Shown: positions 32,739 to 48,066 of the stretch, one piece after another | How positions within the stretch are numbered: the first letter of the stretch is position 1 | Layout of the letters: each line of letters opens with the position of its first letter | DNA from: Candidatus Uhrbacteria bacterium | Lineage (GTDB): Bacteria > Patescibacteriota > Patescibacteriia > UBA9934 > UBA10169 | Assembly: GCA_016187485.1 (NCBI GenBank) | Contig: JACPJO010000005.1 | Location: 7,499 to 71,498 of the forward strand | DNA: 64,000 nucleotides | Reading direction: 5' to 3' | Translations under genes and position numbers: made by a program | The notes under the pieces: model-generated | What the model was told of the DNA's origin: nothing | The model's database searches: none | Seen by the model: the letters and a program-made list of their open reading frames with translations, nothing else

Positions 32739-33614
32739 ATGGAAAAACTGCTTTCCTGGTATAAAAAACACGGCCGGAAGTTGCCCTGGCGCCGCACGCG
32801 AGACCCGTACAAGATTCTCGTTTCGGAAGTTATGCTTCAGCAGACGCAGGTGCCGCGCGTCCTTTTATACTACGAAAAATGGCTCACGCAGTTTCCGTCG
32901 TGGAGATCTCTAGCGCAAGCAACGAACGCCCAAGTCATCCGCGCGTGGTCGGGGCTTGGGTATAATCGCCGTGCCCTTATGCTTCGCGACGTGGCAAAAA
33001 CTGTTGTGGGGCAGGGAGTGCCGAAGTCGGAGACGGATTGGCAGAAACTCAAAGGGATTGGGCCGTACACGGCGGCAGCGCTTGCGGTGTTCTCTTTGCG
33101 CACGAGGGCTCTGCCGATTGATGTGAACGTTCGCCGCGTTCTCGGGCGTGTGTTTTTTGGCAAGCCTTACCCAACACCCAAAATAGATCGGCTAATTTGT
33201 GAGAATAAGAGAATAGTTTTTGGACGAGCGCATCAGTTCTACGACGTTCCGCAAGCGTTATTTGATCTTTCCACAATGATCTGTAAGAAGAAACCGCTGT
33301 GCGAGATTTGTCCGTTGCGTACGGAGTGCAAAACGGCGCCAAGATTTCTCTCCGGAGGAGTAAAAACGCCAAAACGTTCTCTTAAGAAATCCCGCGAGCG
33401 TATTCGCATCGGTAAAAAATATCCTGACCGCATTTACCGGGGGCGTATTCTTAAACTGGCGGCCCACATTCGTGGGGTGGGCCTGCGCCATGTGGGTTCT
33501 GTGGTTGATCCGGCCTACACACCACGCGATGCCGCATGGATGACGGCTATGATCGAGCGTCTCATCGCCGATAAACTTGTTGTACGCCGCCGCGGTCGCT
33601 TATTCGTGGAATAA
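32739..33614 (+). CDS. HhH-GPD DNA glycosylase (MutY/Nth-type adenine glycosylase)
   Basis: LPWRRTRDPYKILVSEVMLQQTQV (HhH-GPD start) and CKKKPLCEICPLRTEC ([4Fe-4S] cluster loop). There is no NUDIX-like C-terminal domain. Confidence 0.8.
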   Translation: MEKLLSWYKKHGRKLPWRRTRDPYKILVSEVMLQQTQVPRVLLYYEKWLTQFPSWRSLAQATNAQVIRAWSGLGYNRRALMLRDVAKTVVGQGVPKSETDWQKLKGIGPYTAAALAVFSLRTRALPIDVNVRRVLGRVFFGKPYPTPKIDRLICENKRIVFGRAHQFYDVPQALFDLSTMICKKKPLCEICPLRTECKTAPRFLSGGVKTPKRSLKKSRERIRIGKKYPDRIYRGRILKLAAHIRGVGLRHVGSVVDPAYTPRDAAWMTAMIERLIADKLVVRRRGRLFVE

Positions 33615-33633
33615 CTGCTACAATTTTCCCACT

Positions 33634-34515
33634 ATGTCATCTCCTATCTTTACACGCAATGCGTTTTTGCATTTGCTTGCGTTCATCAGTTTTTATTGGG
33701 CTGTCGTGGGGCTTATCACGCTCTACTTCCAAATTGTCAACGCGCTCTTTCCGGACCCGCTTATCTATCAAGACATGACATTTGGCGCCATGCGGTGGGG
33801 GATTTCTTCGGTGGTTATTGCGTTCCCTGTTTTTGTCGTGACGATGCGGTTCATTCGGAGCCAGGGCATTATTCGACCGCATTTCCCCATATACTTCACG
33901 CTTTTTGTGACGGGTGTCACGGCCATGATTGATTTAGCTACGCTTGTATATCACCTCACCGGTGGGGATCTCACAACGCGGTTTATTTTGAAAGCACTGG
34001 CTGTGCTCGTGGTTGCCGGTTCCGTGTTTGCTTACGAATGGTGGCACTTGAAACATGACGCGCTTCACCCGTCCAAACGCGCACGCTTCATGTTTATCCT
34101 CGTCTATATTTTACTCGCGCTTTCTGTGGTTGACGCATTTTGGGTGATTGGTTTACCAAACGTGCGGCGGTCACAGTCGCTTGATGAACGGCGCGTAAAC
34201 GATCTTCGCTCTTTGCAATGGGAGGTGCTTTCTCTCTACCAACGGGATGGCGAACTTCCTGAAACGCTTGATATGCTTGTGCGCGATCCGGGCACCAGTG
34301 CTGCCTATGAGTATCGGCCACTCGACCTTGCGTCATTTGAGCTTTGTGCAACTTTTGATCGCGCTTCTACAGGAAAAGAATCGCCGCCTTATATGGGCCG
34401 ACCCATTGCGGAAACATCAGACATTTTTACCCATGGGGCCGGATACACGTGCTTTGCGCGCACGGTTGAAGCCGATCCGGCTGTAGCCAATGAAAAAATC
34501 TATCGGCTGAGGTAG
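33634..34515 (+). CDS. Membrane protein with 5-6 TM helices and a soluble C-terminal domain (hypothetical)
   Basis: Hydrophobic segments through about residue 170, then a polar C-terminus. Start chosen after the mutY stop; the track ORF begins at 33577. Confidence 0.4.
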   Translation: MSSPIFTRNAFLHLLAFISFYWAVVGLITLYFQIVNALFPDPLIYQDMTFGAMRWGISSVVIAFPVFVVTMRFIRSQGIIRPHFPIYFTLFVTGVTAMIDLATLVYHLTGGDLTTRFILKALAVLVVAGSVFAYEWWHLKHDALHPSKRARFMFILVYILLALSVVDAFWVIGLPNVRRSQSLDERRVNDLRSLQWEVLSLYQRDGELPETLDMLVRDPGTSAAYEYRPLDLASFELCATFDRASTGKESPPYMGRPIAETSDIFTHGAGYTCFARTVEADPAVANEKIYRLR

Positions 34516-34536
34516 GGGGAGAATAAGAGAGGTATA

Positions 34537-34567
34537 AAAGTCGAAAGCGACCCCGTGGGGTCGCTAG
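34537..34567 (-). terminator. Rho-independent terminator of the 519-aa GC-rich gene; copy 1 of a 31-nt element repeated in inverted orientation at 46746-46776
   Basis: On the minus strand the transcript reads AGCGACCCC-ACG-GGGGTCGCT followed by UUCGACUUUUAU. It is identical over 31 nt to the hairpin after the 45233..46723 gene. Confidence 0.6.
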
Positions 34568-34614
34568 GTCCTCCTTCGCCTTGATGGGCTACGGAGGATG
34601 GAGAGAAGGAACGT

Positions 34615-36174
34615 TCAGTCGTTGGGATCCGTGAGCTTGCGCACCCGCATAGCGTGGGTGTCGAACGTGCAGGGCGCGTCCGCGAGCGGGTAGAAGCGCC
34701 AGCAGTCGCGCGCGACGGGCGGCGTATCGCGCGGGGGGAAGCCCGGCACGAGCACGTCGGTCCGCGCGGCGAGGAGCTGGCGGTCGATCTGGTCCTGGGG
34801 CCACTCGAGTTCGTAGCGGAGCGTCTGTCCGCTCTGCACGACCGTGGCCGTGTAGAGCTCTCGGTGCTTCGTGCGGCTGAAGCCATCGTAGGTGGGCTTC
34901 ACGAACTGCCAGCCGCACTCGATGACGCGCGACTGCAGGGCCTCGTAGAACCATGCCTGGCGCACGATGCTCTCGCGCGGCACGGTCTTGGTGCCCTCGT
35001 CTTCGCGCCCCTTCTGTGGCCTCACGGACTTGACGTAGCCGGTGCCCCCTTCCTCCATCTCGGCGGCCAGGATGTGGCGGTACAGGTAGGGGGCGTTCTC
35101 CGGCGTGAGGCGCCGGAGGAGGTTGCCGAGCAGCTGCTCGCACTCCCGTCCCCACGTGTTCCTGTGCATGTCGAGCAGCAGGTGGGTGGCGATCGTGTAG
35201 GACGAGTCGCACGCGGGCAGCGCGCGCAGGATGTCGTAGCGCACGCCGATCGGGAGGGCGCGGAGGCTCTCCGTGTCGACGTGCTTCGCCGTCATGTTCG
35301 GCTGCGACAGCGCACTCGTCGTCGCCTCGATCATGGGCAGGGCCCAGTCGAAGCCGACCCGGGCGAGCGCCATGAGCTCCTTGATGCCCTTGTTGTAGAA
35401 CGCGTTGTGGGGCGGAGGTGGCGGGTTGCCGGCCTGGAGGTGCGCCGCGAATGCCGTAGCGAGCCACCACCGGTGAACGAACGCCAGCGGAGCCCGCCGT
35501 GCGCACTCCGTGACCATCTTGCGGAAGTCGTTCACGTCCTCGAAGCAGGGCCAGAGGGAGGCGGCCCATCCATCGGAGGAGTCGAGGAACTTCCCGGCGA
35601 ACGAGCCATCCGTGTTCGTCGTGATGAGCTCCCACACGATCTCGCGCATCATCTGCTTGCCGTCCCGGTGGGTCAGGATCACGTCCGTGAGCCACGTCGG
35701 GTCGTGGGAGCGGCGGAGGATGTGCGTCCGCGCCGTCTCCACGCGCTCCTCGATCGGGAGCCAGGCGAAGAGGATCGGCAGCTCCTGCACGATCTCCGTC
35801 ATCTGGGTCCACGACGTGTCCGTCGTGAGAACCCGTGCGAGTGCCGCACGGTCTGCCTCGGGCAGGATCGTTCCGAGGTGCTCCAGACTCTGCAGGACCC
35901 AGCAGAGCCCGTGGGCCTGCGTGATGTCCTCGGGGAGGTTGCACTCGCGGTCGCGCTCGATCGCGGTCAGGATGTCCGCCAGCTTGAGCGTCCCCGTCTC
36001 GTCGCGAACCGTGAGGTCGGGGTGCAGCATGAAGCGCGCCTGGCGCGTCTTCTGTGCCTTCTTCTCCTTGATGGCCTTGTCGCGGGCCTGCTGGTACTCG
36101 AGGAAGCTGAACCCGCGATTTTCGAGATCCTTCCGGATTTCCTGCATCTCCTCACTGTTGAGCTCGATGTCCAT
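34615..36174 (-). CDS. Large hypothetical protein (519 aa) encoded in a GC-rich (foreign-looking) block
   Basis: Long ORF with balanced, protein-like composition. The overlapping long ORFs in other frames are Arg/Pro/Ala-rich high-GC artefacts. I recognise no catalytic motif. Confidence 0.55.
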   Translation of the reverse strand: MDIELNSEEMQEIRKDLENRGFSFLEYQQARDKAIKEKKAQKTRQARFMLHPDLTVRDETGTLKLADILTAIERDRECNLPEDITQAHGLCWVLQSLEHLGTILPEADRAALARVLTTDTSWTQMTEIVQELPILFAWLPIEERVETARTHILRRSHDPTWLTDVILTHRDGKQMMREIVWELITTNTDGSFAGKFLDSSDGWAASLWPCFEDVNDFRKMVTECARRAPLAFVHRWWLATAFAAHLQAGNPPPPPHNAFYNKGIKELMALARVGFDWALPMIEATTSALSQPNMTAKHVDTESLRALPIGVRYDILRALPACDSSYTIATHLLLDMHRNTWGRECEQLLGNLLRRLTPENAPYLYRHILAAEMEEGGTGYVKSVRPQKGREDEGTKTVPRESIVRQAWFYEALQSRVIECGWQFVKPTYDGFSRTKHRELYTATVVQSGQTLRYELEWPQDQIDRQLLAARTDVLVPGFPPRDTPPVARDCWRFYPLADAPCTFDTHAMRVRKLTDPND

Positions 36175-36196
36175 GGTCGGTCTGCCTTTCTGGTGC

Positions 36197-36252
36197 GAAA
36201 TGCACCTTTCAAGGCAGGGCCACCATCGGCCCTACCTTGAAAGGTGCATTTC
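36197..36252. promoter_or_regulatory. 56-nt near-perfect palindrome (25-bp arms, 1 mismatch, 6-nt spacer) upstream of the 519-aa gene
   Basis: GAAATGCACCTTTCAAGGCAGGGCC-ACCATC-GGCCCTACCTTGAAAGGTGCATTTC. No U-tract follows on either strand, so this is not a terminator. It lies in the divergent region between gene 34615..36174 and xth. Confidence 0.5.
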
Positions 36253-36443
36253 ACGCCTTCAGGGGGCCGACGTCCTACAATTTTACGGTGGACGTTGGAA
36301 GTAGGATCTAACTACATAACATGGGAATGTCCTGTTTTCTCCTCGGCTTGCTTGCCGAATGGAGGTGACAGAATACCAAAAAACGGTCGAAATGTCAATA
36401 CATAATGGAAGACTCCGTCCGTGATACAATTTCTGCAATATCT

Positions 36444-37247
36444 ATGCCAAAGCGCACGCGCACGATTATCTCTTGGAATGTCAACGGTATTCGCTCGGTC
36501 TTGCGGCAGGGTCTTTCGGATTTTATAAAAAAACACCATCCCGACATTCTCTGCCTACAAGAAACGAAGGCTGAGCAAGGCCAAGCCGTCGTAGATTTGC
36601 CGGACTATGAGGAGTATTGGAATAGTGCAAAGAAGAGAAAGGGATATTCTGGCACCGCGATTTTCTCCAAGCAAAAACCTCTCTCGGTTTCTTTTGATTT
36701 ACCTGTCAAAGGCGGGGTGCTTACGGACGAGTATGGGGACGCTAATGGGGAAGGGCGCGTGATCACGGCCGATTACGGAGACTTTTTTCTGGTCAACGTG
36801 TATACACCAAATGCAAAGCCGGACTTGGGACGTCTGGCGTACCGACATAAAGTTTGGGACCCGGCGTTTCTGAAATATCTTAAAGCCCTTGAAAAGAAAA
36901 AACCCGTGATTGCCACAGGCGATTTCAATGTGGCGCACGAGGAGATAGACATTGCGCGACCGAAAGAGAATGTGAAAAACGCCGGCTTTACTCCCGAAGA
37001 GCGCAAAGGGTTTGAGCGCATAGTGGAGGCGGGGTTCGTGGACACGTTCCGTCTGCTCCACCCAAACGAAAAAGATCGTTACACGTGGTGGGCGCGCTGG
37101 AGCAATGCCCGTGCGCGCAATGTCGGTTGGCGCATTGATTATGTTATCGTCTCGCCGGCGCTCAAGAGAAAAATTAAACGCGCGTTTATTCTTGACCATG
37201 TTATGGGCTCCGATCATTGCCCTGTGGGGGTTGATTTGCTAGGGTAG
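36444..37247 (+). CDS. xth: Exodeoxyribonuclease III (Xth, AP endonuclease)
   Basis: ISWNVNGIRS, LCLQETK, DFNVAHEEIDI, NVGWRIDYVIVS and SDHCPVGVDL are the catalytic motifs of the ExoIII family. Confidence 0.85.
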   Translation: MPKRTRTIISWNVNGIRSVLRQGLSDFIKKHHPDILCLQETKAEQGQAVVDLPDYEEYWNSAKKRKGYSGTAIFSKQKPLSVSFDLPVKGGVLTDEYGDANGEGRVITADYGDFFLVNVYTPNAKPDLGRLAYRHKVWDPAFLKYLKALEKKKPVIATGDFNVAHEEIDIARPKENVKNAGFTPEERKGFERIVEAGFVDTFRLLHPNEKDRYTWWARWSNARARNVGWRIDYVIVSPALKRKIKRAFILDHVMGSDHCPVGVDLLG

Positions 37248-37253
37248 CTCCGT

Positions 37254-38756
37254 ATGAACATCACTATCGTCAAAGGCAGACTGGAGGAACAAAAGGCCGA
37301 CCTTCTTGTGGTAAATGAATTCTCTGGTGTGGAGAAAACCGGCGGAGCGACGGGATCTGTTAATAAAGCGCTTGGGGGGCTTTTGGAGAAACTCATGAAG
37401 GAGGAGCAGTTTAATGGCGGACAGAGGGAGACGCTTCTAGTGCGGACGGGGGGTGTTATTCCCGGCTCACGGGTTCTTCTTGTTGGACTCGGTGAACGAA
37501 AAGATTTTTCTCTAGAAACCGTACGCGAGGTGAGCGCTGCTGCGTACAACACAGCGAAGAAACTTGGGGCGCGCCGCGTCGTCTCGATTCTTCACGGCGC
37601 AGGAGCAGGGAAGTTGTCGGCGCTTCTGTGTGCAAAGGCACAGACCGAAGGCGTACGGCTTGCCGAATATGAATTTGTTAAACGGAAAAAGGCACCAGAG
37701 AAAAAGACGCCGAAAGTAGAGTCCTGGACTATCGTCTCTTCGGATGCTGCTCATGTGCGTGCGGGGGCAAGGGGGGTGGGCGAAGGCGAACTTTCTGCCG
37801 AGGGAACGATCTTTGCGCGCGACCTTGTGAATGAGCCAGCGGGACAGATGACGCCAAGACATTTGGCGCTCGCGGCGCAAAACATCGCAAAGGTGAGCAA
37901 AGGAGCCGTTCGTATAAAAGTTTTTGAAGCAGGGCAGATCGAAAAGATGGGTATGGGGGGGGTTGCCGGCGTTGGTCAAGGATCTGTTCATCCGCCATAT
38001 TTTGTCCACCTTATCTACAAGCCACGCGGGGCAAAGAAAACGGTTGCGGTGGTGGGGAAGGGCATCACGTTTGACTCCGGTGGTCTTTCTCTCAAACCGG
38101 CCGACTACATGATGACGATGAAGTGCGACATGGCCGGTGCCGCGGCGGTGCTTGGGTTGTTCTCGGTGCTTACGCGGGTTGCTCCAAAGGTTACAGTGCA
38201 CGGGATTTTTGGCGCCTGTGAAAATATGCCGTCGGGAAACGCCATTCGACCGGGCGATGTACTCAAAGCGCTCAATGGAAAGACGATGGAGGTGTTGAAT
38301 ACGGATGCCGAGGGACGTTTGACGCTGGCCGACAGTCTTTCGTATGCGTCCAAATTGAAGCCCGACGCTCTTGTGGACCTTGCCACACTTACGGGTGCGT
38401 GCATGGCGGCACTTGGTGAAGAGATAACAGGGGTGATGGGGAACGACCACAAGTTGACAGGAGCAATATTGCAAGCGGCTGCCGCGGCTGGCGAAAAGAT
38501 GTGGGAGCTGCCACTTGAGAAGAGATACAAAGATCTCATCAAATCTGAAATTGCCGACGTAAAAAATATCGGGGGGAAATACGGCGGCGCCATTACCGCG
38601 GGTCTCTTCCTGCAAGAATTTGTTGACGCGGAAATTCCCTGGGTTCATCTAGACATTGCCGGTCCCGCGTTTGCCGAGCGGCCGGTAAATGCGTACACCC
38701 GTTATGGCGGCACCGGAGCCGGTGTAACAACACTCATCGAGTTCTTGAAAAAGTAG
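37254..38756 (+). CDS. pepA: Leucyl aminopeptidase (M17 family, PepA)
   Basis: NTDAEGRL signature. Metal-binding residues lie in VGKGITFDSGG and DMAGAAAV. Confidence 0.85.
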   Translation: MNITIVKGRLEEQKADLLVVNEFSGVEKTGGATGSVNKALGGLLEKLMKEEQFNGGQRETLLVRTGGVIPGSRVLLVGLGERKDFSLETVREVSAAAYNTAKKLGARRVVSILHGAGAGKLSALLCAKAQTEGVRLAEYEFVKRKKAPEKKTPKVESWTIVSSDAAHVRAGARGVGEGELSAEGTIFARDLVNEPAGQMTPRHLALAAQNIAKVSKGAVRIKVFEAGQIEKMGMGGVAGVGQGSVHPPYFVHLIYKPRGAKKTVAVVGKGITFDSGGLSLKPADYMMTMKCDMAGAAAVLGLFSVLTRVAPKVTVHGIFGACENMPSGNAIRPGDVLKALNGKTMEVLNTDAEGRLTLADSLSYASKLKPDALVDLATLTGACMAALGEEITGVMGNDHKLTGAILQAAAAAGEKMWELPLEKRYKDLIKSEIADVKNIGGKYGGAITAGLFLQEFVDAEIPWVHLDIAGPAFAERPVNAYTRYGGTGAGVTTLIEFLKK

Positions 38757-38803
38757 GCTCGGGCGTGTAACCGCTACGTCCACCTTATCTTCCTCGCTCG
38801 AGT

Positions 38804-43099: not shown

Positions 43100-43984
43100 A
43101 TGACTCTTTTCGATTCCCACTGCCACGTCCATTTTCGTGCTTATAAGGAGGACAGGGATGCTGTTATTAAGCGTGCAACCGAAGAGGGCGTTTTCATGCT
43201 TACCGTGGGGACGCAGGCGGATACGTCGCGTGAAGCGGTGCGTGTGGCTAACGCGCATGAAGGTGTGTGGGCGACGGTGGGGCTTCACCCCAATCACACG
43301 ACGGCACAAGAGTTTGTAGACGAGAGTGAGGAGGACACCATAGCGAAAGTCAAAACGCGCACAGAAGTTTTTGACGCGGAAATGTATCGTCCGCTTGCGC
43401 AAGATCCAAAGTGCGTGGCGATTGGGGAGTGCGGACTCGACTTTTATCGCATCCCCGAACATCTTGATCGAACGGACGTCATACGAACGCAAGAAGAGAT
43501 GCTGCGGCGGCAGTTTGATTTGGCGACCGAACTTGGGAAGCCCGTGGTCATCCATTGCCGCGACGCGCACAAAGAACAGGCAGATATAATTGAAGAGTAT
43601 GTCAAAAAGGGAAAGCTGGGTGCGCGGGGTGTGATCCATTGTTTTACGGGTACGAAGGAAGATGCCCTTCGGTATCTTGCGCTTGGGTTTTATATTTCGT
43701 TTTCGGGGGTCGTGACGTTTCCGCCACGTAAAGAGGGGTCTGACCCCTCCGGGGGTCAGACCCCTCTTGCGCCGCTTGCGCTTGTGGCGCGTGATATTCC
43801 GGAGAATCGAATTCTCATCGAAACTGACGCCCCCTATTTAGCGCCTATTCCCATGCGGGGTAAGCGCAATGAGCCGGCGTATGTGCGTCATACAGCAGAA
43901 TTTTTGGCAAAGTTGCGTGGAGTGACTTTGGAGGAGTTTGCAAAGGTGACAACAGAGAACACGAGGAGAGTATTTGGCATTTGA
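43100..43984 (+). CDS. tatD: TatD-family metal-dependent DNase/hydrolase, carrying an in-frame palindromic insertion
   Basis: N-terminal FDSHCHVHF and internal IETDAPYLAP motifs. A 38-nt perfect palindrome (43731-43768) encodes an extra KEGSDPSGGQTPL loop. Confidence 0.85.
   Translation: MTLFDSHCHVHFRAYKEDRDAVIKRATEEGVFMLTVGTQADTSREAVRVANAHEGVWATVGLHPNHTTAQEFVDESEEDTIAKVKTRTEVFDAEMYRPLAQDPKCVAIGECGLDFYRIPEHLDRTDVIRTQEEMLRRQFDLATELGKPVVIHCRDAHKEQADIIEEYVKKGKLGARGVIHCFTGTKEDALRYLALGFYISFSGVVTFPPRKEGSDPSGGQTPLAPLALVARDIPENRILIETDAPYLAPIPMRGKRNEPAYVRHTAEFLAKLRGVTLEEFAKVTTENTRRVFGI
43731..43768. repeat. Perfect 38-nt palindrome made of two GGGGTC(T/A)GACCCC units, inserted in-frame in tatD
   Basis: AAGAGGGGTCTGACCCC-TCCG-GGGGTCAGACCCCTCTT. 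The same 13-mer GGGGTCAGACCCC recurs at 23488-23500, and a related GGGTC-N3-GACCC motif occurs at 3004-3021. Confidence 0.7.
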
Positions 43985-44030
43985 AATTCGAAAGCCAGGC
44001 ACGAGGCCTGGCTAGGAAGAAAAGAACGAA

Positions 44031-45104
44031 CTAGAGCTTGTGGCCGAGGCGGCGCATGGTGGCGTGGATGTCGCTCACCACGAGCACGGCGTCGGCACGC
44101 GTGAGGTGCCACACGCGCTCGCCGTCCCAGTGGCGAAGTGGTCGCCGGATTGCCGAATCCTCGTTGAGTAGATCGGTGTAGAGTGCGCGCAGTCGGGGCT
44201 CGGACTTCTCTCCCTCGAATCGCTTGATGCGCAGTTTGAGGCGCCGAGCGAGCTCCGCCGACATCTCCTCGCGACTCTTCCGTGCCGCGACGAGCCGGAG
44301 GCTCGTATACACGCCGTCGTCTCGTCCCTGCTCCCACGCTGCGATGAGCTCCGGTTCCGGACTCACGCGGATGTAGTTGGCGGGGAGCGTGCGCGGCGGC
44401 GGTTGGGCGGCCTCGGTGCGCGGTGTGGCCTCTGCCGAAGGCGGTTCTGCCGCCTGCCGCTGCGCCTGCTCAATGTCCGCCGCCGTGACACCGCTTCCCG
44501 CCTGCACGACTTGTGCGCGCAGGCGCTCTTCGCGAATGCGCGCCCGGGAGCTTTCCGCCGCCGCCGTCTCTTCCGCCGTCTTCACGAGCTCCATCTTCTG
44601 CGTTCTAGCGTAGGCGGTGAAGCCATCGCGCACAGAGGAGTTCCAGAAGGCGCTGTCGTCGGGCCAGTCGGGCGCATCGTTGGGGGACGTGTAGCCGAGT
44701 TGTCGCGCCATCGCGATCACCTCGTCGTACTGATCGTCTCCCTCGGGCGCGATCTGCATCGGCTCGTCGGGGTTGCGGGAGGAACTGTGTCGGTACTTGT
44801 CGAGCGCCTTGAGTCCGTAGTAGATCGCCTCGCGCAGACTCTCGTCCACGCCGACCTTTTCGAGCAAGGTCTTCCATTGCTCGAGCGCGCCAGGCTTCTC
44901 CACGCTCTTCGTGAAGGTCCCCCGAGGGAGGAACCTCACGGCGCCCTCGACGAACGGGGCGAATTCGTAGCTGCCGTCCTTCTCTCGGTCTACGTAGTTG
45001 TTCCCCCCCTCCATCTGACGTGCGTCGGCGAAGGGGAGGGCGACGAGGTCCAGGTACTCCTGAGGATTCAGTTCAGAAAGGCTGATAGCCATGGGGTACT
45101 CCAC
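44031..45104 (-). CDS. Hypothetical protein (357 aa) in a GC-rich foreign block
   Basis: Long ORF with normal composition, a central Ala/Glu/Gln/Pro-rich linker and a charged C-terminal domain. Divergent from the 45233 gene. Confidence 0.5.
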   Translation of the reverse strand: MEYPMAISLSELNPQEYLDLVALPFADARQMEGGNNYVDREKDGSYEFAPFVEGAVRFLPRGTFTKSVEKPGALEQWKTLLEKVGVDESLREAIYYGLKALDKYRHSSSRNPDEPMQIAPEGDDQYDEVIAMARQLGYTSPNDAPDWPDDSAFWNSSVRDGFTAYARTQKMELVKTAEETAAAESSRARIREERLRAQVVQAGSGVTAADIEQAQRQAAEPPSAEATPRTEAAQPPPRTLPANYIRVSPEPELIAAWEQGRDDGVYTSLRLVAARKSREEMSAELARRLKLRIKRFEGEKSEPRLRALYTDLLNEDSAIRRPLRHWDGERVWHLTRADAVLVVSDIHATMRRLGHKL

Positions 45105-45158
45105 TTCGTATAGGTTAGGAAAAGGCCGAAACGCCTCAACTTAGCAAAAAAACCTGTC

Positions 45159-45178
45159 GCTGTCAATGCGTTGACAGC
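45159..45178. promoter_or_regulatory. Palindromic operator candidate overlapping a TTGACA -35 box between divergent GC-rich genes
   Basis: GCTGTCAA-TGCG-TTGACAGC is a perfect 8-bp inverted repeat. A CTGTCG/CTGTCA direct repeat lies immediately upstream. Confidence 0.45.
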
Positions 45179-45232
45179 AGCAGACTTTTCTGCTAGGTTA
45201 AGCCCTTAGTTTGCGGCGATCCTGCCGCGAGC

Positions 45233-46723
45233 TTGGGCCGTCCAAAGACGGACGGCAAGTTCCTTGCAAGATGTTGGGCAATCCCGCCCTGTGTACGGCG
45301 CCGTGTGGCGCAGAAAGTGAGAGAGGCCATGCCTCGTCCCCGTAAGGCTCTGCCTGCAGAGCTCCGGCCCGCCATTCCGGGCAAACCGGTCAATCTTCTT
45401 CCCGACAAGTACCGCCGGAACCCCCTCCAGTTCGCCCGCGAGGAGATCGACATCGCGCGCAACAAGGGGGAAGTGCCCGACAACGATGCCGCTTTCCAGA
45501 CCCAGATCATCGAGGAGGACGAACGGCGGTGGCGGTCGCGCGAGCTGCCCGCCATCGCGGGGTACGTGAACCGGATGTACGCGCGCGGAACGTTCGTGGA
45601 CCCCGACGACTTCATGATCGTCTGGGGGCTCTGGAACCAGCACACCCACAGCTTCCGGCTCTCGCACGGCGACCCGGCGGTCACGAACGTTCTCACTGCC
45701 CACAACCAGGGCATGGCCCGCCCCATCACCGATGCGTTCCGCCCCATCCACGAGAAGGCGGTTCCGGTCCCGTTGGCGCTCCTCGCCTTCGAGAAGCGGG
45801 AGATGGGCGAGGACGTCCCGGCGGGCGTCGAGACGTCGGTGTACGTCTACGTCTGCATGCCGGCCAATCTCGAGGCATCGGTGAAAGACGGAAACTTCAC
45901 CGACGACGTGAGCGTGGGCGACACCCAGGTCTACACCACGGATCGCCAGGCAGTGCACCGCCGGAAGGAGGGCAATTTCCTCTTCCGGCCGAACAGCGTG
46001 TCCAAGCACCCCCGCAAGCGCTTCGTCGCCTTCCATCCCGTCACGAAGAAGCCGATCTACCTCGCTGTGATCCCGCAGCGCTTCCTGCGCCGTGGCAAAG
46101 AGGGCGAGGAAGGCTTCCAGCCCGGGCAGCCCTGCCCGGTGGACATGGACGAGTTCGCGGACGGCTACCAGGCCCAGGTCATGGACGAAGGTGCGGTGGC
46201 CACGGACGAGCCGGCGGAAGAGGAAGTCAAGAAGATCCTCGACCGCATCGCGCACGGAGGTGCCGGCGGGCGCAAGGCCAGCAGGCAGGGCGAGTTCGAC
46301 TTCGACGGCCGCGTCTGGAACGCGCTCTCGATCCTCGGCATCAAGGAGGGTGAAGCGCCGACGGCAGAGAGCATCGGGAAGGCGCGCAGGCGCTACAGTC
46401 CGAGGCTCTTCGATGCTCGAAGCGCCATGGGCCTCCACAGCGCCCTCGTCCTGCTCGGCATGCCCGAGAGCGATCGCACCGCGTACATGAAGGACAAGCA
46501 CTTCGAGATCTTCAAAGCCGCGGTCGGTGTGGCCGAGGGGATGCTGCCGAAGGCCGAGCCGGTGGAGGAGACGGAAGGCGACAAGCCCGCCGACTCGCCA
46601 CCCGCAACAAGCGAAGCGTCCAGCGCGACGACCTCGCCCGCCGACACGACGGACGACCCCGCCATGTCCCAGCCCGCCGCGACCCGCAAGGCCCCGCGCG
46701 TGGAACCCGGCACCGACGACTGA
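45233..46723 (+). CDS. Large hypothetical protein (up to 496 aa) in a GC-rich foreign block, with acidic Ser/Thr/Pro-rich C-terminal tail
   Basis: Long ORF whose overlapping antisense ORFs show high-GC artefact composition. The true start is possibly the Met at about 45329 (MPRPRKAL). Stop TGA at 46721-46723. Confidence 0.5.
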   Translation: MGRPKTDGKFLARCWAIPPCVRRRVAQKVREAMPRPRKALPAELRPAIPGKPVNLLPDKYRRNPLQFAREEIDIARNKGEVPDNDAAFQTQIIEEDERRWRSRELPAIAGYVNRMYARGTFVDPDDFMIVWGLWNQHTHSFRLSHGDPAVTNVLTAHNQGMARPITDAFRPIHEKAVPVPLALLAFEKREMGEDVPAGVETSVYVYVCMPANLEASVKDGNFTDDVSVGDTQVYTTDRQAVHRRKEGNFLFRPNSVSKHPRKRFVAFHPVTKKPIYLAVIPQRFLRRGKEGEEGFQPGQPCPVDMDEFADGYQAQVMDEGAVATDEPAEEEVKKILDRIAHGGAGGRKASRQGEFDFDGRVWNALSILGIKEGEAPTAESIGKARRRYSPRLFDARSAMGLHSALVLLGMPESDRTAYMKDKHFEIFKAAVGVAEGMLPKAEPVEETEGDKPADSPPATSEASSATTSPADTTDDPAMSQPAATRKAPRVEPGTDD

Positions 46724-46745
46724 CAGACCAATTCGTTCTTTCTCT

Positions 46746-46776
46746 CTAGCGACCCCACGGGGTCGCTTTCGACTTT
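46746..46776 (+). terminator. Rho-independent terminator; copy 2 (inverted) of the 31-nt element at 34537-34567
   Basis: AGCGACCCC-ACG-GGGGTCGCT followed by TTCGACTTTTTTG. Starts 23 nt after the stop of gene 45233..46723. Confidence 0.65.
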
Positions 46777-47000
46777 TTTGTATCTTTCCTTTATTCCCCC
46801 TCGAAGGTATGTAAGGATAATCTAAGGCGTGTCGCAAGGACGGGGCCCCCATAACCCCGCAGCCCAGCTCAGCTGGGCGCAGCGAGTCATCGAGCGAGGA
46901 GGATGGGGTGGACGTAGCGGTTACACGCCGTCTTGTTACCTGTTCAAAACTTCCCTTGACCTTTAGTGTCTTTCCCTATATACTTTCGGCGCTTTTCGAT

Positions 47001-48066
<1,066 letters not shown>

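Follow-up and report, generated by a model that had tools for sequence, protein, structure and literature searches.

A near-perfect 56-nt palindrome in front of the gene for a 519-aa orphan protein of a Candidatus Uhrbacteria MAG may well be, in a judgement that we hold to be evenly balanced, a cis-acting element of the transcribed leader RNA of that gene, that is, an element of gene control and not the scar of a mobile element. On this view, the palindrome would encode a long RNA hairpin with almost perfect pairing in the mRNA leader. We infer that it would act after transcription, with a role as a determinant of double-stranded RNA processing or of stability being the likeliest; alternatively, an RNA-binding protein could dock on the hairpin, and the helical-repeat protein encoded downstream is a possible candidate for this. 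Here the foot of the helix directly adjoins the ribosome-binding site and is predicted to pair with part of it, an arrangement that may also damp translation in this genome. The element is a putative new leader motif that would function like a leader processing or regulatory hairpin, within no described family. The features discussed below are located in the window, i.e., the whole 64-kb stretch of DNA (64,000 nucleotides) that was analyzed:

36197..36252, minus strand: core palindrome, 25-nt arms with one mismatch (G·U in the sense RNA) and a 6-nt loop (GAUGGU in the sense RNA)
36192..36257, minus strand: leader hairpin as predicted in full; 27 bp pair without interruption (36195-36254), and two G-C pairs follow after a 1x1 internal loop
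36185..36190, minus strand: SD-like GAAAGG between the hairpin base (4 nt away) and the ATG (10 nt away), partly paired in the minimum-energy fold
36370..36398, minus strand: sigma-70-like promoter, TTGACA-17-TATTCT with an upstream TG; predicted start near 36363
36175..36363, minus strand: inferred 5' leader of ~190 nt, with 53% GC like the host; start site predicted from the consensus
34615..36174, minus strand: gene of the 519-aa orphan protein, GC3 93% versus 54-56% in the neighbours, no family match
34516..34614, minus strand: 3' UTR of the 519-aa gene with the module TCGTTCCTTCTC...CTAGC-GACCCC-ACG-GGGGTC-GCTTTCGACTTTT and a terminator-like hairpin at 34541-34567

The palindrome reads GAAATGCACCTTTCAAGGCAGGGCC ACCATC GGCCCTACCTTGAAAGGTGCATTTC. 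Its arms (36197-36221 and 36228-36252) contain a single mismatch and enclose a centre of 6 nt (ACCATC, 36222-36227) without self-complementarity; they can be extended to 30 nt (36192-36257) at 90% complementarity. Exactly 22 nt (36175-36196) lie between the palindrome and the ATG of the 519-aa gene, and the arms, mismatch, centre and spacing described in an earlier sequence-only reading were reproduced to the exact coordinate. The palindrome is the longest inverted repeat of the window and the only one with arms of more than 20 nt and a loop of less than 60 nt. It is present as a single copy in the window, in which the arm, with up to three mismatches allowed, occurs twice, compared to no occurrence in 100 shuffles. 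Although it is located next to a GC-rich gene, at the edge of a GC-rich block, its own GC content is host-like. Its two neighbours, the 519-aa gene (minus strand) and xth (plus strand), point away from it in divergent orientation, and no gene reads into it. Following the stem, the sense strand continues with CGCACCAG and the other strand with ACGCCTTC; a T-run 3' of the stem is absent from both strands and the terminator scan does not list the palindrome. Indeed, the sequence-only reading had already denied that it is a terminator, and an intrinsic terminator was rejected on these grounds.

An assembly artefact as the source of the palindrome was ruled out, because six Logan contigs from different sequencing runs match it. 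Contigs L001 to L005 cover it entirely; L001, L003, L004 and L005 are exact matches to the window and L002 deviates only at its far tip, near 37775-37792, while L006 begins within the palindrome, at 36242, and is an exact match from there on. All six contigs stop inside a span of 8 nt, at 34538 in five cases and at 34545 in L005. These breaks result from a 32-nt exact repeat shared with 46746-46777, which exceeds the assembler k-mer, and population heterogeneity at an insertion edge was therefore rejected as their cause. When the palindrome arm was used as a DNA pattern, 29 viral and 21 metagenome matches were obtained. In 49 of these the arm matched once, in L009 it matched twice, ~2 kb apart and without a change of strand, and matches to both strands were absent throughout; all of them were judged to be chance matches.

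A promoter is conserved upstream of the palindrome. The sequence TTGACA-N17-TAT(T/C)(T/C)T (TATAGT in L038), followed by a start region that contains TTCG, could be aligned in all four loci of the gene family, with the contig of one of them, L036, starting inside the -35 box, and in each of the three loci that have an inverted repeat the promoter is upstream of the repeat. In a 19-kb scan the promoter of the window came first (tied at 10 of 12). Since this conserved promoter lies upstream, we infer that the palindrome is part of a transcribed leader, the start of which is placed by consensus match only. The leader would open with a small hairpin, and the palindrome begins ~105 nt after the predicted start.

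The product of the gene is annotated as a hypothetical protein. The GC contents of the three codon positions (0.64/0.45/0.93) identify the minus strand as the real frame, and a long ORF on the plus strand (34654-36240) was dismissed as an antisense by-product of the high GC3 (its GC1 is 92%). The block from 34600 to 36100 has 62 to 77% GC, compared to roughly 53% in the genome. The gene is flanked by a convergent gene for a DUF5671 membrane protein (33577-34515, plus strand) and by the divergent exonuclease III gene, xth, whose ORF on the plus strand extends from 36405; as called on the Logan contigs, Xth has 267 aa, which places the start at 36444. The 519-aa protein has no match in Pfam, NCBIfam, PHROGs, PADLOC or the PDB sequences. 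Domain searches of the protein and the locus gave no integrase, transposase, Rep or protelomerase signature, a DNA-binding domain was not detected in the protein and an RNA-binding domain was not recognized, and neither DNA nor protein matches revealed a phage or plasmid counterpart. An AlphaFold2 model built from the four known sequences has a low confidence (mean pLDDT, 64) and consists of an alpha-helical repeat (about residues 1 to 370) and a small alpha/beta C-terminal part. Foldseek searches with this model against PDB and BFVD returned nothing significant, only weak, nonsignificant resemblances to helical-repeat proteins, including PUF-like ones. The alignment of the four sequences has no invariant cluster of catalytic-looking residues, and no paralogy of the 519-aa gene with the other GC-rich genes was found.

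A full HMMER search over 1.84 billion representative proteins yielded only three relatives of the 519-aa protein:

P0003, locus L036: 27% identity, E = 3e-17
P0002, locus L037: 36% identity over 240 residues, N-terminally shorter
P0004, loci L038 and L039: 27% identity, E = 3e-5

Word-indexed searches with the protein, the four-sequence profile and P0003 returned the queries alone, the back-translated motif VRxAWFY-N8-ECGW had no match in the metagenome and genome contig collections, and a search for related loci gave only P0004 itself and nothing in viral contigs. In L036, the P0003 gene is followed by a convergent DUF5671 gene whose product is 46% identical to that of the window, and in L037, the P0002 gene is preceded by a divergent xth, 65% identical to that of the window. 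The context of the P0004 gene is different; in both L038 and L039 a divergent HTH_3 regulator gene adjoins it. Since two relatives occupy the DUF5671-xth locus, the 519-aa gene is a resident and not a recent insertion, and gene order and divergence together point to a fast-evolving resident of this locus in a clade of Uhrbacteria-like CPR bacteria. The description of the gene as foreign and derived from a donor element, given in the sequence-only reading, is contradicted by these syntenic relatives and by their conserved promoter. The accession of L038 (CAYUTM010000010.1) is titled "uncultured Gammaproteobacteria"; it has ~40% GC and many T4SS_pilin (PF18895) genes of a kind that we take to be typical of CPR bacteria, and its MAG label may be wrong.

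The leaders of the relatives were then compared with that of the window, as the sequence-only reading had suggested. In L036, an inverted repeat with 24-nt arms of 100% complementarity (275-298 and 313-336) is separated from the ATG by 64 nt; its sense RNA is predicted to form a stem of 32 bp. L038 and L039 have a weaker version, with 23-nt arms of 87% complementarity, a 37-nt spacer and a distance of 68 nt to the ATG; the stem of L038 has about 23 bp with mismatches. L037, whose gene is N-terminally shorter, has only a small hairpin in its leader and no long one. The leader folds of the window, L036 and L038 were all more stable than those of shuffled sequences (z = -9.2, -6.9 and -5.5, respectively). 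The palindrome belongs to the 519-aa gene, as the sequence-only reading had it. That reading named homologous genes without any comparable palindrome upstream as its refutation, and this refutation did not come about, since distant homologues have such hairpins in their leaders. The comparison of the loci identifies the hairpin, at the level of sequence, as an ancestral cis-element of this gene, with a conserved order of promoter, leader, hairpin and coding sequence.

The arms of the window and L036 can be aligned (GGCGTGAAAT--GCACCTTTCAAGGTAG-GGCC over GGCGT-AAATACGCACCCATTATGGAAGAGGCT), with 22 of about 30 bases in common, a score that was reached by 3 of 5,000 shuffles; the remaining parts of the two leaders have no detectable similarity. 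Between these two hairpins, 16 pairs are identical, 5 have undergone double compensatory changes and none is broken; 3 single changes all lead to G·U in the sense strand, and 3 insertions or deletions are paired on both arms. Near the base of the stem, window and L036 share the outer-arm sequence AAAU..GCACC / GGUGC..AUUU. The arm of L038 is similar to that of L036 only (p about 0.03) and not to that of the window, and in the genome of L038, long AT-rich inverted repeats are common (6 arms of at least 20 nt per 21.6 kb). The maintenance of base pairs by compensatory changes between window and L036 appears supportive and not statistically decisive, the covariation being drawn from two well-aligned sequences; there are only three instances of the hairpin because the family has four known members. 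Moreover, covariation from arm to arm is also expected of a DNA palindrome if template switching homogenizes its arms or a symmetric protein binds it. The retention of pairing in leaders that have otherwise diverged, next to proteins that are 27 to 46% identical, points to constraint on both the pairing and a part of the hairpin sequence.

The gene-sense RNA of the palindrome was predicted to fold with -75.7 kcal/mol (z = -8.55), and with its flanks, the stem reaches about 29 to 32 bp. In the minimum-energy fold, a flanking CCU (36261-36263) pairs with the AGG (36185-36187) of the SD-like GAAAGG, by which the long stem is continued into a helix that reaches the ribosome-binding site; this partial pairing of the SD sequence is predicted in this genome only and not in the relatives. 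Both non-Watson-Crick pairs of the window stem are G·U on the mRNA strand. In line with this, the sense fold of the window is more stable than the antisense fold (-59.0 versus -54.9 kcal/mol), and the difference is larger in L036 (-52.7 versus -38.0 kcal/mol), where eight pairs, including five G·U, are added to the stem in the sense RNA alone. In L038, the order is reversed, with the antisense fold (-34.4) more stable than the sense fold (-27.9). Since the positions without Watson-Crick pairing can form G·U in the sense RNA, pairing in RNA is favoured. The sequence-only reading had also considered a cruciform-forming regulatory site. Its gene-regulatory part is the closest of the candidates proposed there, and the cruciform is disfavoured, because the centre is G+C-rich, which is kinetically unfavourable for cruciform extrusion, and because the G·U positions point to RNA. 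The loops of the three hairpins (6, 4 to 14 and 37 nt), their distances from the predicted start (about +105, +235 and +45) and their distances to the ATG (22, 64 and 68 nt) all vary, and therefore a hairpin is favoured over an operator or a core recombination site.

What would such a hairpin do? A stem of two or more helical turns without a U-tract is a classical RNase III substrate, and long leader stems of the rnc/pnp type act on mRNA stability and translation. RNase III hairpins have stems of about 20 bp or more; the stems of the window and L036 are predicted to have 27 and 32 bp, respectively. Since the duplex is long and perfect and lacks a U-tract, control of processing or stability is the leading sub-hypothesis; RNase III-type processing specifically is, by analogy, possible and on the doubtful side. 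The predicted window leader would resemble those of E. coli rnc and pnp and of phage T7 and the lambda N-leader in its long stem, the sigma-70 promoter upstream, the lack of a U-tract and the variable position relative to the start codon. However, many natural RNase III sites have internal loops, whereas the predicted window stem is almost perfectly paired; rnc and pnp encode ribonucleases, whereas the gene downstream of the palindrome is an orphan; and there is no relationship in sequence or in Rfam. Searches of Rfam 15 gave only generic matches to miRNA precursors with long hairpins, at 23 to 38 bits compared to thresholds of 87 to 107.

Two other kinds of leader would share part of this architecture. 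Autoregulatory leaders (those of ribosomal proteins, the thrS operator, T4 gene 32 and regA) also have a gene-specific, sequence-conserved hairpin in their own leader near the SD sequence, and as in these, the window hairpin is far better conserved than the adjacent noncoding sequence. Unlike their products, the window protein has no recognized RNA-binding domain, the only hints being the helical repeat of the low-confidence model and the weak, nonsignificant PUF-like Foldseek matches. The 5' stabilizers of ompA, aprE and ermC are likewise leader hairpins that would impede 5'-end-dependent RNases, and the window mRNA, as predicted, would in addition have a GC-rich coding sequence and a strong hairpin at its 3' end. 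However, 5' stabilizers need the extreme 5' end, whereas the window hairpin would start ~105 nt into the leader, with a separate small hairpin at the 5' end.

If the palindrome acted as DNA instead, it could be an operator or roadblock: a regulator, perhaps the product of the 519-aa gene, would bind the duplex as a dimer or tetramer and block elongation from the promoter upstream. Such a site would be in keeping with the dyad symmetry, whose outer arms have a motif in common (AAAT..GCACC / GGTGC..ATTT in both the window and L036, CACC/GGTG in L038), with the conservation of the sequence itself, which at ~70% goes beyond pairing while the proteins are 27% identical, and with the HTH_3 regulator genes that adjoin in L038 and L039. 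Nevertheless, we consider an operator unlikely: the spacing of the half-sites varies by tens of bases and the distance to the promoter from +45 to +235, all 24 to 27 positions are complementary, which is more than the contact positions, and the single changes are confined to those that give G·U in the sense strand. Moreover, the protein has no DNA-binding domain and no HTH gene is adjacent in the window.

An attenuator in the leader, a long-stem intrinsic terminator with a weak U-tract that stops most transcripts unless an antitermination signal intervenes, would be placed exactly where the hairpin is found, between a promoter and its gene. At the base of the stem, A prevails in the 5' strand and U in the 3' strand (GAAAU...AUUUC for the window and UAAAUAC...GUAUUUAU for L036), as in terminators with an A-tract and a U-tract, and the L036 hairpin is flagged as terminator-like when the inner stem alone is counted. 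Against this, only 3 U follow the inner stem of the window, which the scan did not flag, and L038 has no U-run; the stems of 24 to 32 bp far exceed those of typical terminators, and no alternative antiterminator pairing was evident in the folds of the window, L036 and L038 leaders. We regard an attenuator as quite unlikely.

We regard it as very improbable that the palindrome serves a mobile or donor element as a site on DNA, be it an attachment, recombination, hairpin telomere-resolution or nick site or an origin. Such a site is suggested by the strongly deviant composition of the gene (GC 67% versus 53%; GC3 93%), by the position of the palindrome at the edge of the GC-rich block and by its size, since a palindrome of 56 bp recalls protelomerase targets. 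The sequence-only reading had listed recombination, attachment, replication and nicking sites among its candidates. They lose ground with the single copy, the host-like GC of the palindrome and the lack of any recombinase, Rep or protelomerase signature, and the synteny of the gene in related genomes, where its host-type promoter is conserved too, goes most of the way to refuting them. Furthermore, the edges of the island lack both direct repeats and target duplications, no palindromic copy was found in viral or metagenome collections and the protein has neither a phage or plasmid homologue nor an invariant catalytic-looking cluster. The 56-bp telRL of phage N15 is similar in total length and near-perfect dyad symmetry; unlike in telRL, the centre of the window palindrome is not palindromic, no protelomerase gene is present and the setting is a chromosomal, syntenic leader. 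A protelomerase target was rejected since ACCATC is not self-complementary and the adjacent protein has no Pfam, NCBIfam or PHROG match. In an integron attC, RYYYAAC ... GTTRRRY core sites surround an imperfect palindrome 3' of the cassette ORF; the region 36192-36257 contains no GTT or AAC triplet and is located 5' of the gene, and attC was rejected. So were the terminal inverted repeats of an IS or MITE, since the palindrome is single-copy and has no flanking direct repeats and a transposase domain is missing. The least probable explanation, by a narrow margin, is a functionless palindrome that arose by a template-switch error of replication and awaits removal: template switching makes perfect inverted repeats in one step and intergenic DNA tolerates them, but a homologous hairpin has been kept at the same place where DUF5671 is only 46% identical and the leader has diverged, with zero broken pairs after many substitutions.

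The leader RNA hairpin, which is the reading that we prefer, belongs to a gene whose composition calls for an explanation of its own. The coding sequences of the family (34615-36174 in the window, 401-1948 in L036, 426-1523 in L037 and 10001-11632 in L038) have a GC3 of 93, 87, 90 and 70%, compared to 54-56, 42, 50 and 31-47% in their respective neighbours. The GC3 of 70 to 93% is 35 to 45 points above that of the neighbours, despite synteny and 27 to 36% protein identity, and the anomaly ends at the boundaries of the coding sequence: leaders, hairpins and UTRs are host-like. Ordinary horizontal transfer followed by amelioration does not explain an extreme GC3 that is confined to coding sequence.

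Two further GC3-rich orphan genes are present in the window, at 44031-45104 (minus strand) and 45329-46723 (plus strand). The 3' module TCGTTCYTTYTC...CTAGC-stem-loop-stem-GCTTTCGAMTTT (34516-34614, 43985-44030 and 46724-46790) comes after each of the three GC3-rich genes and after none of the remaining genes of the window, and the pattern gives 3 matches compared to 0.04 expected. Two copies of the module are identical over 32 nt, 34536-34567 being the reverse complement of 46746-46777; in the third, the flanks are kept and the stem is different and fully compensated.

The two genes form a second GC-rich island (44031-46723), between the genes for TatD and the ATP synthase A chain (ATP-synt_A; ORF 46908-47825). 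They are divergent and encode proteins of 357 aa (minus strand, GC3 82%) and 464 aa (plus strand, GC3 88%; true frame plus from 45329), which have no family or PDB match and are unrelated to the 519-aa protein. Their promoters appear to overlap in their -35 boxes at 45158-45179, in the palindrome TGTCAA-TGCG-TTGACA, with each box followed at 17 nt by a -10-like hexamer, TAAGTT or TAGGTT. Inside the TatD-family ORF (43100-43984), a perfect palindrome with 17-nt arms is present at 43731-43768 (AAGAGGGGTCTGACCCC / GGGGTCAGACCCCTCTT), which could be an in-frame palindromic insertion. A 40-nt intergenic repeat with a terminator-like hairpin inside occurs at 46890-46929 and, inverted and 92.5% identical, at 38762-38801; one copy lies between the convergent genes for an M17 leucyl-aminopeptidase-family protein (37254-38756) and a peroxiredoxin (AhpC/TSA family), and the second precedes the gene for the ATP synthase A chain.

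The combination of an extreme-GC3 coding sequence with a 5' hairpin and the 3' module CTAGC-hairpin-GCTTTCGA is conceivably, and on balance improbably, an undescribed design of special transcripts in CPR bacteria. Such transcripts could be mRNAs "armoured" against the ribonucleases of the cell itself or of a partner. Alternatively, these genes could be the target of a GC-biased process, such as localized recombination or gene conversion, for which the palindrome and the shared 3' module would be landmarks.

To our knowledge, gene regulation in CPR bacteria (Patescibacteria) is very poorly understood, and few cis-regulatory RNAs have been described in them. The palindrome would provide a concrete leader element for this group, with a conserved promoter, a hairpin that evolves by compensatory changes and a defined gene. 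What composition alone would present as a "foreign island" is here a resident, syntenic and rapidly evolving gene, by which a tempting misreading is corrected. The persistence of a GC3 excess confined to coding sequence is a more interesting problem than the palindrome, and together with the 3' module, it may mark a regulon, an "armoured mRNA" design or a localized GC-biased process.
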